Shown: positions 2,858 through 63,499 of the stretch, in pieces
How positions within the stretch are numbered: position 1 is the stretch's first letter
Layout of the letters: each line of letters begins with the position of its first letter
NCBI RefSeq assembly: GCF_056712565.1
Contig: NZ_CM160072.1
DNA length: 64,000 nt
Strand: one strand, 5' to 3'
The notes under the pieces: generated by a model
Database searches by the model: none
Seen by the model: only the letters and a program-made list of their open reading frames with translations
What the model was told of the DNA's origin: nothing
Position numbers and translations under genes: made by a program

Positions 2858-4507
2858 ATGGAAATCTTCTTCACCATACTGATAATGACCCTCGTGGTCT
2901 CGCTGTCCGGGGTGGTCACTCGTGTCATGCCCTTTCAGATCCCGCTTCCGCTTATGCAAATCGCCATCGGTGCGCTACTGGCGTGGCCGACGTTTGGTTT
3001 GCATGTGGAGTTTGATCCTGAACTCTTTTTAGTCTTGTTTATCCCGCCGTTGCTGTTCGCTGATGGCTGGAAAACGCCGACCCGTGAATTTCTCGAACAT
3101 GGGCGAGAGATTTTCGGCCTCGCGCTGGCGCTGGTGGTGGTCACCGTGGTCGGCATTGGCTTCCTTATTTACTGGGTGGTGCCGGGCATTCCGCTGATCC
3201 CCGCCTTTGCGCTGGCTGCGGTGCTTTCTCCGACCGATGCTGTAGCGCTCTCCGGGATTGTTGGCGAGGGGCGCATCCCGAAAAAAATCATGGGCATTTT
3301 GCAGGGCGAAGCGTTGATGAATGACGCCTCCGGCCTGGTGTCGTTGAAGTTTGCCGTGGCAGTGGCGATGGGGACAATGATCTTCACCGTCGGCGGTGCG
3401 ACGGTCGAATTTATGAAAGTGGCAATAGGCGGTATTCTCGCCGGTTTTGTGGTGAGCTGGCTGTATGGTCGCTCGCTGCGATTCCTCAGCCGCTGGGGCG
3501 GTGATGAACCCGCGACGCAGATCGTTCTGCTGTTCTTGCTGCCATTCGCTTCTTATCTGATTGCGGAACATATTGGCGTTTCCGGCATCCTCGCTGCGGT
3601 TGCCGCCGGGATGACCATCACCCGCTCCGGTGTGATGCGCCGTGCGCCGCTGGCAATGCGCCTGCGCGCAAACAGCACCTGGGCGATGCTGGAATTTGTC
3701 TTTAACGGCATGGTGTTCCTGCTGTTAGGTCTGCAGTTGCCGGGGATTCTGGAGACGTCGCTGATGGCGGCAGAAATCGACCCTAACGTCGAAATCTGGA
3801 TGCTGTTTACCGATATTATTCTGATATATGCGGCGCTGATGCTGGTCCGTTTCGGCTGGCTGTGGACGATGAAAAAGTTCAGCAACCGCTTCCTGAAGAA
3901 GAAGCCGATGGAGTTTGGTTCGTGGACTACACGAGAAATCCTGATCGCGTCTTTCGCCGGGGTGCGTGGGGCGATCACTCTGGCCGGTGTGCTCTCTATC
4001 CCGCTTCTCTTGCCGGATGGTAACGTCTTCCCTGCGCGCTATGAGTTGGTGTTCCTGGCGGCTGGCGTCATTCTCTTCTCATTGTTTGTCGGCGTGGTGA
4101 TGTTGCCTATTCTGCTACAACACATAGAAGTCGCGGACCATTCGCAACAATTGAAAGAGGAACGTATTGCACGAGCGGCAACGGCAGAAGTGGCGATTGT
4201 GGCGATCCAGAAAATGGAGGAGCGTCTGGCGGCGGATACCGAAGAGAATATCGATAACCAGCTGCTCACAGAGGTTAGTTCTCGCGTCATTGGTAACCTG
4301 CGTCGTCGCGCCGATGGACGTAATGATGTAGAAAGTTCAATCCTGGAAGAGAACCTGGAGCGTCGCTTCCGTCTGGCGGCATTGCGTTCTGAACGTGCTG
4401 AACTGTACCACCTGCGCGCCACGCGGGAGATCAGTAACGAAACGCTGCAAAAATTACTGCACGATCTCGATTTGCTTGAAGCGTTGCTGATTGAGGAAAA
4501 TCAGTAA
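2858..4507 (+). CDS. yjcE: Putative Na+/H+ exchanger, CPA1 family
   Basis: 549-aa membrane ORF with a charged C-terminal cytoplasmic domain; synteny. Confidence 0.85.
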   Translation: MEIFFTILIMTLVVSLSGVVTRVMPFQIPLPLMQIAIGALLAWPTFGLHVEFDPELFLVLFIPPLLFADGWKTPTREFLEHGREIFGLALALVVVTVVGIGFLIYWVVPGIPLIPAFALAAVLSPTDAVALSGIVGEGRIPKKIMGILQGEALMNDASGLVSLKFAVAVAMGTMIFTVGGATVEFMKVAIGGILAGFVVSWLYGRSLRFLSRWGGDEPATQIVLLFLLPFASYLIAEHIGVSGILAAVAAGMTITRSGVMRRAPLAMRLRANSTWAMLEFVFNGMVFLLLGLQLPGILETSLMAAEIDPNVEIWMLFTDIILIYAALMLVRFGWLWTMKKFSNRFLKKKPMEFGSWTTREILIASFAGVRGAITLAGVLSIPLLLPDGNVFPARYELVFLAAGVILFSLFVGVVMLPILLQHIEVADHSQQLKEERIARAATAEVAIVAIQKMEERLAADTEENIDNQLLTEVSSRVIGNLRRRADGRNDVESSILEENLERRFRLAALRSERAELYHLRATREISNETLQKLLHDLDLLEALLIEENQ

Positions 4508-59850: not shown

Positions 59851-59900
59851 GCTGAAACGGATGGCCTGATGTGACGCTGTCTAATCAGGTCAATTGAACT

Positions 59901-59917
59901 CTTAAGGTTCACTTAAT
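59901..59917 (+). promoter_or_regulatory. PmrA (BasR) box CTTAAG-GTTCA-CTTAAT upstream of pmrR
   Basis: Direct hexamer repeat with 5-bp spacer matching the YTTAAK-N5-YTTAAK PmrA consensus, 45 bp upstream of the pmrR ATG. Confidence 0.6.
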
Positions 59918-59961
59918 CTCTGACGCGCATACTCTCCTCCAGGTTAACGGAGGAGAGTGCA

Positions 59962-60051
59962 ATGAAAAACCGTGTTTATGAAAGTTTAACTACCGTGTTC
60001 AGCGTGCTGGTGGTCAGCAGCTTTCTTTATATCTGGTTTGCCACGTACTGA
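59962..60051 (+). CDS. pmrR: PmrR, 29-aa membrane peptide (PmrA-activated regulator of LpxT)
   Basis: ORF MKNRVYESLTTVFSVLVVSSFLYIWFATY with one transmembrane helix, preceded by GGAGGAGAG; its 3' end overlaps the basS 3' end on the opposite strand. Confidence 0.6.
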   Translation: MKNRVYESLTTVFSVLVVSSFLYIWFATY

Positions 60052-61127
60052 TCTTTTTTCAGCCGTATCCAGGCCCGCGTGCCGGAAGTCTCTTGCCGGT
60101 TTTGCAGGAAAAACTGCCCGTGATGCAACTGTGTAATGCGGCTGACAATACTTAACCCCAGACCAATCCCGCCATAACGGCTGTCCATTCGTACAAACGC
60201 TTTACTCAACTCCCCGCATTTACTCTCATCAATACCCGGCCCTTCATCTTCAACGGCCATGACCGCTCCGCCATCTTCTTGCAGCTTAATCATAATGTTG
60301 CTGCCTTGTGGGCTATAACGATGGGCGTTTTCTACCAGGTTTCGCAATAACATCCGCAGCAGGGTTGCATCACCCTGAACGGTGATGTCGGCGGCGCTCT
60401 CTGGCAATAGCAGGGTTTGCTGGCGCTGGTCGAGCATGGTACTAAGTTCGTCATACGAGGGGAGAATGACATCTTCCAGCAGTTTTACATGTTGATAATT
60501 ACCGGAAGAAAATGACTGTCCGGCACGCGCCAGTTGCAGCAGCTGGGAGACGCTCTCCATCATCTGATCAAGTCGTGCCACTAACGGTGCTACATCAATG
60601 TGATGCGTTTTCGCCAGCAGTTCCAGATGCAAACGCACCCCCGCCAGTGGTGTTCGCAGTTCGTGCGCGACGTCAGCGGTAAACAACCTTTCGTTATCCA
60701 GCGTGCTGGTCAGGCGACTGACCAGATCGTTTAACGCCGAAACCACCGCATCGATTTCGAGGGTGGCGCTATGAATGGCAATGGGCGTTAAGTTATCGGC
60801 GGTGCGCGCTTCCAGCTCTTTTTGCAGCTCCGCCAGCGGTCGGGTGATGCGGCGTACCGCCTGATAGCAGATAAATAGCGTCAGGCTAACCATAAAGACG
60901 CCGGGGACAATCAGGCTGGCGACCGCCTCGCGGATCTCACGCATGATGTGGCGATCGTTGTTGCGATTGTCGCGTAGCGCCTGCTCAAACAGCTGAATCT
61001 GCTCGGTACTTTCATGCCACAGCCAGAAGACGCTGATCAGCTCAAACACCAACAAAATGGCCCCGATGGTCAATATCAGCCGTTGGCGCAGCGATATTGG
61101 TCGGCGCAGAAAACGCATCAGATTCAA
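60027..61127 (-). CDS. basS: Sensor histidine kinase BasS/PmrB
   Basis: HAMP and HisKA (HELRTPL) motifs; start could be 61127 or the ATG at 61118. Confidence 0.9.
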   Translation of the reverse strand: MNLMRFLRRPISLRQRLILTIGAILLVFELISVFWLWHESTEQIQLFEQALRDNRNNDRHIMREIREAVASLIVPGVFMVSLTLFICYQAVRRITRPLAELQKELEARTADNLTPIAIHSATLEIDAVVSALNDLVSRLTSTLDNERLFTADVAHELRTPLAGVRLHLELLAKTHHIDVAPLVARLDQMMESVSQLLQLARAGQSFSSGNYQHVKLLEDVILPSYDELSTMLDQRQQTLLLPESAADITVQGDATLLRMLLRNLVENAHRYSPQGSNIMIKLQEDGGAVMAVEDEGPGIDESKCGELSKAFVRMDSRYGGIGLGLSIVSRITQLHHGQFFLQNRQETSGTRAWIRLKKDQYVANQI

Positions 61128-63436: not shown

Positions 63437-63482
63437 CACGGTGTTTCCATCGAACAAAGTGCGCATATGCTCGCAAAGCAAA

Positions 63483-63499
63483 ATTAAGCCAACCTTAAG
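63483..63499 (-). promoter_or_regulatory. PmrA (BasR) box CTTAAG-GTTGG-CTTAAT upstream of eptA
   Basis: Minus-strand direct hexamer repeat with 5-bp spacer, 47-63 bp upstream of the eptA ATG at 63436. Confidence 0.6.

Follow-up and report, generated by a model that had tools for sequence, protein, structure and literature searches.

The closest described relative of the locus analysed here is pmrR of Salmonella enterica and Escherichia coli K-12, which belongs to the same family, lies in the same position convergent on pmrB, has the same kind of PmrA-box promoter, and encodes a 29-residue peptide with a single helix. The primary paper on this gene, with biochemical work on PmrR and LpxT, is reportedly that of Kato 2012. 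Ribo-RET reads at the PmrR start site in E. coli were found to rise 5-fold in low Mg2+, a PmrR-6xHis fusion was recovered in the membrane fraction, and overproduction of PmrR was harmful (PMC11429745). In the same study, deletion of pmrR caused a growth defect in low Mg2+ that was rescued by the wild-type ORF and not by an ATG-to-TAA version (PMC11429745). The translation check that had been proposed for this ORF from sequence (ribosome profiling or a tagged peptide; hereafter, the original prediction) thus has a positive answer in published work, i.e., in the Ribo-RET reads, the tagged peptide, and the ATG-dependent complementation. The low-Mg2+ growth phenotype of the deletion was independent of lpxT, and LpxT may therefore not be the sole target of PmrR; a single-copy reporter of the pmrR upstream region showed no response to low Mg2+ (PMC11429745).

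Genetic work on the PmrA box was done in E. coli W3110 derivatives with constitutive PmrA, in which deletion of the box of pmrR made the cells polymyxin-sensitive and deoxycholate-resistant, and polymyxin resistance was restored either by deletion of lpxT or by ectopic pmrR (PMC8129183). Translation, membrane location, the requirement for the box, and the epistasis with lpxT are established in this literature, while the elements of the locus, its family membership, its conservation, and the purifying selection on it are established by the analysis presented below. The gene is already known, annotated, and functionally studied, and the finding itself is an ordinary one; with the role of PmrR established, it adds nothing new.

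Identity and conservation of pmrR

The window (i.e., the whole stretch of 64,000 nucleotides that was analysed) is E. coli chromosome, and the features of the locus are collected in Table 1. RefSeq PGAP annotates the ORF as pmrR, 'LpxT activity modulator PmrR' (WP_000797657.1), its K-12 MG1655 counterpart is b4703 (4332116-4332205), and 5 of 351 nt around the gene differ between K-12 and the window. The peptide matched the NCBIfam equivalog NF033224 with 74.2 bits against a cutoff of 30 (E = 5.2e-21) and over the full length of the model (residues 1-29 on profile positions 1-29 of 29); Pfam holds no family for it. A 260-bp region around pmrR was found in 5408 of 5426 complete E. coli genomes, in several of them at 100% identity, and the gene immediately follows pmrB/basS in convergent orientation, which is the placement that marks PmrR. 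The original prediction had taken the ORF for pmrR, and the RefSeq annotation, the K-12 counterpart, and the equivalog match all agree with it. Its accompanying remark that small ORFs like this are routinely missed by gene callers fails for pmrR in current RefSeq, where the name stands on the ORF in 15 of 15 E. coli records among the matches listed; the gene is now called by curated models and is therefore no longer routinely missed.

Table 1. Features of the pmrR locus, with positions counted from the first letter of the window
Feature	Position	Strand	Description
Rfam RF02052 'STnc630' match	59893-60058	+	Model positions 1-166; spans PmrA box, stem-loop, and pmrR ORF
PmrA (BasR) box, direct repeat	59901-59917	+	CTTAAGGTTCACTTAAT; CTTAAG (59901-59906), GTTCA, CTTAAT (59912-59917)
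-10-like hexamer CATACT	59928-59933	+	10 nt 3' of the PmrA box; conserved across 46 loci
Stem-loop	59931-59958	+	10-bp stem; conserved
Stem-loop 5' arm	59931-59940	+	ACTCTCCTCC; overlaps -10 hexamer and predicted +1
Stem-loop loop	59941-59948	+	AGGTTAAC
Stem-loop 3' arm	59949-59958	+	GGAGGAGAGT; contains Shine-Dalgarno GGAGG (59949-59953)
Mapped sense-strand RNA 3' terminus	59958-59966, peak 59963	+	Attributed to upstream proP transcripts (PMC10687069)
pmrR CDS	59962-60051	+	29 aa, probable single-pass membrane peptide; ATG at 59962, stop codon ending 60051, ORF translation MKNRVYESLTTVFSVLVVSSFLYIWFATY
pmrR-basS/pmrB coding overlap	60027-60051		25 nt on opposite strands, stop codon included
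basS/pmrB sensor kinase gene	60027-61127	-	Convergent with pmrR
pmrR 3' UTR	60052-60151	+	Up to the mapped 'primary' 3' terminus
Second PmrA box	63483-63499	-	Promoter of the eptA-basRS (pmrCAB) operon, same regulon

The 5 kb around pmrR contain 77 ORFs of at least 20 aa, and the gene status of pmrR therefore rests on evidence beyond ORF length, namely the NCBIfam match, conservation of the ORF in position, purifying selection, and the hydrophobic stretch. The description of the product as a single-helix peptide of 29 codons stands: residues 9-27 form a hydrophobic 19-mer (mean Kyte-Doolittle 1.94), and the N-terminus is short and carries K2 and R4. PmrR is thus probably a peptide with one transmembrane helix and its N-terminus inside.

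Conservation was assessed in 80 pmrB loci from species-representative genomes, collected with the BasS protein as anchor (no Salmonella locus is among the 80). A PmrR-like ORF of 28-33 codons converges on pmrB in 48 of these 80 Enterobacterales loci, in genera including Escherichia, Citrobacter, Klebsiella, Raoultella, Kluyvera, and Kosakonia as well as Phytobacter, Trabulsiella, Yokenella, Pluralibacter, and Pseudocitrobacter; none was found in the non-Enterobacteriaceae loci of the set (Pectobacterium, Rahnella, Rouxiella, Ewingella, and others). All orthologues share F21 and W25. The pN/pS values were 0.045/0.28 against E. albertii and 0.13-0.17/0.44-0.59 against Citrobacter, and this excess of pS over pN at short distances indicates that the peptide is under purifying selection.

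The PmrA box, the -10-like hexamer, the stem-loop, and the ORF are common to the same 48 of 80 pmrB loci, as a portable module of ~150 nt that stands behind two different upstream genes across Enterobacteriaceae. The gene 5' of pmrR (proP in Escherichia and Citrobacter; uvrB in Klebsiella, Raoultella, Kluyvera, Kosakonia, and others) shares its orientation in 45 of the 47 related loci that carry a pmrR gene, and the whole module is absent where uvrB adjoins pmrB (18-38 nt apart). In K. pneumoniae, an additional strong uvrB terminator touches the PmrA box. Overall, we consider it very probable that the feature is pmrR (K-12 b4703), a PmrA/BasR-activated gene for a small membrane peptide that acts on LpxT.

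Promoter, transcript ends, and the overlap with basS

The motif YTTAAK-N5-YTTAAK has 2 matches in the 64-kb window, compared with 0.08 expected, and none of 100 shuffles contained at least 2. One match is the box upstream of pmrR; the other, on the minus strand, precedes eptA/pmrC, the head of a known PmrA-activated operon. In an alignment of upstream regions, TTAA-N7-TTAA was invariant in 46 distinct orthologous pmrR promoters, and the box that the original prediction had placed before the ORF (CTTAAG-N5-CTTAAT) is well supported. The -10-like hexamer reads xAxACT across the 46 loci, with A2, A4, and T6 invariant and C5 nearly so, and box and ATG are always 59-61 nt apart in the aligned loci. 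The layout of the pmrR promoter recurs at eptA in the window (i.e., box, 10 nt, then GAGCAT). Judged by geometry, the box appears to occupy the place of the -35 element, at a fixed short distance before the -10 hexamer. In class II promoters of the OmpR/PhoB type, this geometry sets the position of the start site relative to the box and the -10 element, and on that model transcription of pmrR is predicted to begin at ~59940-59941. The CTTAAT half-site was also considered as the -10 element and was rejected, as it is without the key A2 and as binding to the box would then repress and not activate. The dependence on the box that the prediction implied is borne out genetically in E. coli, where deletion of the PmrA box produced the phenotype of pmrR loss (PMC8129183).

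On the minus strand, the last base of the basS/pmrB ORF is 60027, and the ORF therefore shares 25 nt with pmrR, as the original prediction had it; this overlap has been described before (PMC8129183, PMC8004244). An overlap of 25 nt is limited to Escherichia, with values from -8 to +57 nt in other genera. The further claim that pmrR transcription runs antisense into the 3' end of basS is likewise confirmed by published maps. The primary 3' terminus of pmrR was placed at K-12 4332305, i.e., 60151 in the window (PMC10687069, Supplementary Data 4), which puts the end 100 nt beyond the stop codon and 125 nt inside basS, such that the 3' UTR and the coding overlap are antisense to the last 125 nt of basS. 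No convincing stem-loop was found at this 3' end (local fold z -0.01). The pair pmrR-basS is also listed in the core MG1655 'excludome' of 165 convergent excludons, each seen in no fewer than 50% of 58 transcriptomes (PMC12288877), and by these maps the two transcripts overlap as those of convergent excludons do.

A second 3' terminus lies at the other end of the gene. Supplementary Data 2 of PMC10687069 lists it at K-12 4332112-4332120 (peak 4332117) as 'Internal pmrR', and the main text of that paper states that the gene upstream of pmrR terminates inside the pmrR CDS. When the K-12 coordinates were converted after a check of colinearity, this terminus fell at 59963, 3-5 nt past the stem-loop. 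A terminator-like site within the pmrR CDS (60005-60019 plus GCTTTCTTTA) was at one point taken for the proP 3' end and was dropped, since the listed termini are 59963 and 60151; it folds no better than shuffles (z +0.31), and no such site was seen in K. pneumoniae or Kluyvera.

Mechanistically, phosphorylated PmrA/BasR would bind the direct repeat, standing in for a -35 element, and activate the promoter with the -10 hexamer CATACT. The resulting short mRNA, with a strong Shine-Dalgarno sequence 8 nt before the ATG, would be translated into the 29-residue peptide, which probably inserts into the inner membrane as one transmembrane helix with its N-terminus in, and the transcript would continue, antisense, into the 3' end of basS. 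PmrR would inhibit LpxT, the enzyme that adds a second phosphate at position 1 of lipid A, and position 1 would thereby be left free for the addition of phosphoethanolamine by EptA; surface charge would fall, polymyxin resistance would rise, and deoxycholate resistance would be lost. In Salmonella, PmrB would then see less bound Fe3+, which would amount to negative feedback. PmrR would thus decide between phosphate and phosphoethanolamine on lipid A position 1, and this choice would translate into a trade-off of polymyxin against bile-salt resistance in gut bacteria.

A conserved stem-loop and its possible roles

The perfect pairing of ACTCTCCTCC with GGAGGAGAGT joins the -10/+1 region to the Shine-Dalgarno region in a stem-loop with a dG of -19.9 kcal/mol (z -4.5), which is very stable for its size. 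Across 46 sequences, 88% of the stem cells pair, compared with 40-60% when the partner column was slid, and two stem pairs switch among A-U, C-G, and G-C across genera (i.e., compensatory changes). The covariation score of the stem was above that of 500 of 500 shuffles, and two stricter measures were not significant (72 and 147 of 500 shuffles, respectively, reached the observed value); as these stricter measures fail and the sequences are related, support for the stem is good and not overwhelming. Folded singly, 41 of the 46 orthologous sequences gave this hairpin with z < -2, and in many orthologues the stem is longer, taking in the complete -10 hexamer on one side and reaching the base next to the ATG on the other. 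The stem is also included in the consensus structure of Rfam RF02052.

Sequence inspection found no U-tract after the stem on either strand, and trimming back to the stem is therefore as likely as true termination. The predicted accessibility of the Shine-Dalgarno sequence is modestly higher in RNAs that start after the 5' arm than in read-through RNAs (mean 0.37 versus 0.15; in E. coli, 0.20 versus 0.08), and the change goes in the direction of masking in 40 of 46 loci. The stem-loop may thus act as a 3'-end-forming structure for RNAs started upstream in proP or uvrB, stopping or trimming them, and may hide the pmrR ribosome-binding site in those RNAs that read through, such that only PmrA-initiated RNAs, begun after the 5' arm, would be freely translatable. 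We tentatively hypothesize, as a possibility that falls somewhat short of an even chance, that the stem-loop is a built-in insulator of the pmrR module, which would end or trim read-in RNAs and mask the ribosome-binding site so that a peptide that is toxic when overproduced is made from PmrA-started transcripts only.

The same palindrome could instead act on the opposite strand, where it would protect or terminate the 3' end of the eptA-basRS (pmrCAB) mRNA and would overlap the promoter and ribosome-binding site of pmrR only as a by-product. In E. coli, the two strands fold nearly alike (minus -18.9, plus -19.4 kcal/mol), and the minus strand is the more stable one in 13 of 46 loci. G-U pairs in the stem, by contrast, number 32 on the plus strand and 8 on the minus strand, and the plus-strand stem is more stable on average by 1.1 kcal/mol (p = 0.04, uncorrected for phylogeny). 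The lack of a U-tract speaks against a terminator for basS as well, and among the termini listed in PMC10687069, in tables of which some were cut short, there is no minus-strand 3' end at this place and no basS entry. These comparisons weakly resolve the strand on which the stem-loop would act in favour of the pmrR sense. A cruciform at the DNA level was considered too; that G-U pairs are so frequent on one of the strands speaks against it.

Published truncations of the region downstream of pmrB bear on the same question. A plasmid-borne colistin-resistance allele of pmrB was found to depend on part of the sequence 3' of it: MIC values were 0.5 for constructs with 0, 34, or 86 bp of downstream sequence, 4 for 103 bp, and 16 for 126, 134, or 176 bp (PMC8004244). 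Since the 176 bp correspond to everything that separates the stop codon of proP from that of pmrB (59851-60026), the numbering is fixed, and the constructs can be placed in the window. The +86 construct ends at 59941 and has lost the -10 hexamer and the 5' arm (i.e., the distal arm as seen from pmrB); the +103 construct ends at 59924 and keeps the -10 hexamer and the stem-loop with the box lost; and the +126 construct reaches 59901, where the PmrA box begins, and leaves the box intact. With 315-fold less pmrB mRNA in +86 than in +126 (PMC8004244), the series could be read as loss of a protective structure at the 3' end of the pmrB message. Against this, the half-life of pmrB mRNA was alike in +86 and +126, and the ORF-only construct had the most pmrB mRNA of all and gave no resistance (PMC8004244); resistance in the series does not track pmrB mRNA. 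On balance, we think it rather unlikely that the opposite strand is where the stem-loop does its work.

The mapping suggests a different reading of the series, in which colistin resistance tracks the integrity of the pmrR promoter, and the cis requirement would be that promoter. The host of the constructs had its own chromosomal pmrR, and with +86 there was no lipid A modification at all (PMC8004244); the simple scheme in which PmrR inhibits LpxT therefore does not cover the result. A second, dosage-matched role of PmrR, or an effect at the level of RNA, is possible behind it, and that a second target of PmrR might be PmrB itself is pure speculation. The mapping of the truncation series is a minor addition for those working on PmrAB.

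The locus might also act mainly as RNA, either as the Hfq-associated STnc630 or as a cis-antisense, convergent excludon against basS, with the small ORF incidental or secondary. The Rfam model RF02052 matches in full (182 bits against a gathering score of 55, E = 1.9e-39) and covers most of the proP-basS interval, with ~42 nt after the proP stop codon outside. STnc630 goes back to Hfq co-immunoprecipitation in Salmonella by Sittka et al. 2008, where it was represented by 27 reads against 1 control read (PMC2515195). The coordinates in the source table are those of the whole proP-basS intergenic region of Salmonella LT2, and there was no Northern signal (PMC2515195), i.e., no discrete non-coding transcript with the ends of the family is seen in that source. 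The PmrA box and a translated ORF under selection both fall within the model; since the family was delimited by an intergenic region and not by a transcript, and Northern blots gave no signal, the 'sRNA' family corresponds to the pmrR locus, promoter included. The Rfam 'sRNA' STnc630 is in fact the pmrR promoter and coding mRNA, which is worth a note to annotators.

The antisense version of this alternative draws on the excludome listing, on the sense 3' end 125 nt inside basS, and on the need of pmrB constructs for the downstream region to reach their pmrB mRNA level and colistin resistance (PMC8004244). However, the peptide is translated and complementation needs its ATG (PMC11429745), it is under purifying selection with its ORF length kept across genera, and the extent of the coding overlap with pmrB varies. 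In a pmrA-constitutive strain, moreover, PmrA-dependent induction of arnT was 50-fold with and without the pmrR promoter (PMC8129183), and strong control of basS is therefore unlikely, at least in that background. We thus judge it highly improbable that the locus works mainly as RNA; that the pmrR transcript has an additional antisense role beside the peptide is perhaps the case, on a minority chance. Finally, a chance open frame, with box and stem-loop as parts of the proP terminator region, could have been suspected from the many short ORFs nearby and from the proP-derived 3' end at the pmrR start codon, but it is excluded, as ORF, box, and stem-loop travel together behind proP and uvrB and go missing as a unit where uvrB adjoins pmrB, the NF033224 equivalog is matched, and published protein data refute it (PMC11429745).

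Comparison with known systems

With pmrR very probably the gene at this locus, its nearest counterpart is K-12 pmrR, with which it shares the 25-nt overlap and from which it shows no difference of substance; the two are one gene in two E. coli strains. What is added here to a known gene is minor, namely the stem-loop, the mislabelled Rfam family, and the placement of the truncations. Rfam RF02052 STnc630 describes the same DNA and is typed as an sRNA, whereas the locus holds a promoter box and a translated ORF. Among convergent excludons, in which pmrR-basS is listed, the pair differs in that both genes are co-induced by the same regulator, and deletion of the pmrR promoter left PmrA output unchanged (PMC8129183).

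At the level of the peptide, the pairs MgrB-PhoQ and MgtS-MgtA offer the nearest likeness, since these, like PmrR, are very short, single-pass inner-membrane peptides that bind a larger membrane protein. MgrB, MgtS, and PmrR are all induced by the PhoPQ/PmrAB stress network (partly PMC11429745). The target of PmrR is an enzyme (LpxT), whereas those of MgrB and MgtS are a sensor or a transporter, and a sequence relationship of PmrR to MgrB or MgtS was neither found nor expected.

At the level of the RNA, the stem-loop recalls IS10/Tn10. Its 'fold-back inhibition' of externally initiated transcripts was reportedly described by Davis, Simons and Kleckner in 1985. In both cases, the ribosome-binding site would pair with a segment upstream of its own transcription start, such that only read-through RNAs would be masked. 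The pmrR start is a predicted one, however, and the gain in accessibility is modest, and at pmrR a mapped 3' end of RNA from the upstream gene falls at the stem; we therefore regard the relation between the pmrR stem-loop and IS10 as an apparent resemblance and not as membership.

The STnc630 family and the hairpins around pmrR

The Rfam family RF02052 'STnc630', which is typed there as an sRNA, matched 59893-60058 with 182 bits, and this match takes in the PmrA box, the stem-loop over the ribosome-binding site and the entire pmrR ORF. In the report of this Salmonella candidate, the STnc630 coordinates are those of the whole intergenic region and the Northern signal was absent (PMC2515195); therefore, the RF02052 family is in reality the pmrR locus.

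Hairpins and regulatory sites at and near pmrR
Feature	Position	Strand	Location or remark
REP-like stem-loop (GGCCTGAT...ATCAGGTC)	59858-59896		immediately 3' of proP stop codon
Stem-loop, perfect 10-bp stem	59931-59958	(+)	pairs pmrR Shine-Dalgarno sequence with -10/+1 region
Terminator-like site, TGCTGGTGGTCAGCA then GCTTTCTTTA	60005-60029		within pmrR coding sequence
PmrA box, second in the window, CTTAAGGTTGGCTTAAT	within 63467-63499	(-)	eptA/pmrC promoter
uvrB terminator, strong, AAGGCCGCGTTGCGGCCTT	L026 4203-4221	(-)	K. pneumoniae

The stem-loop with the perfect stem was kept, with compensatory changes, across 46 distinct orthologous sequences, and a sense-strand RNA 3' end has been reported 3-5 nt past it (PMC10687069). 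The terminator-like site forms part of the RF02052 consensus structure; its local fold was not above that of shuffled sequences, and no mapped 3' end is listed at it. The REP-like stem-loop is stable (dG -17.3 kcal/mol, z -4.5) and is not followed by a U-tract.

pmrB truncations and the pmrR promoter

Published plasmid constructs of pmrB, named by the bp of 3' downstream region that they retain, end at different points of the pmrR promoter: the +126 construct at 59901, where the PmrA box begins, the +103 construct at 59924, within the stretch that separates this box from the -10, and the +86 construct at 59941, where the 5' arm of the stem-loop ends. Their colistin MICs were 16, 4 and 0.5, respectively (PMC8004244). 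The colistin MIC of these constructs tracks the integrity of the pmrR promoter, not the pmrB mRNA level.

In two Escherichia genomes (L002 and L005), a point change in the spacer preceding the -10 creates an in-frame ATG 39 nt before that of pmrR, which lengthens the reading frame to 42 codons (MCILSSRLTEESAM...). Since the predicted transcription start site is located downstream of this additional ATG, the change probably has no significance.

The pmrR module and its promoter elsewhere

The module of box, stem-loop and pmrR was missing entirely, directly 3' of the pmrB stop codon (~4050-4130 in locus coordinates), from Pseudescherichia vulneris, 'Escherichia sp. ESNIH1' and two Enterobacteriaceae MAGs (L012, L017, L021 and L038), where only 18-38 nt separate the uvrB end from the pmrB stop. 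This pattern looks as if box, stem-loop and pmrR were gained or lost as a ~150-nt unit. In K. pneumoniae (L026), the pmrR PmrA box directly adjoins the uvrB terminator, whose T-rich tail is itself the first half-site of the box.

At the eptA/pmrC promoter, GAGCAT stands 10 nt past the PmrA box, a geometry identical to that of the pmrR promoter.
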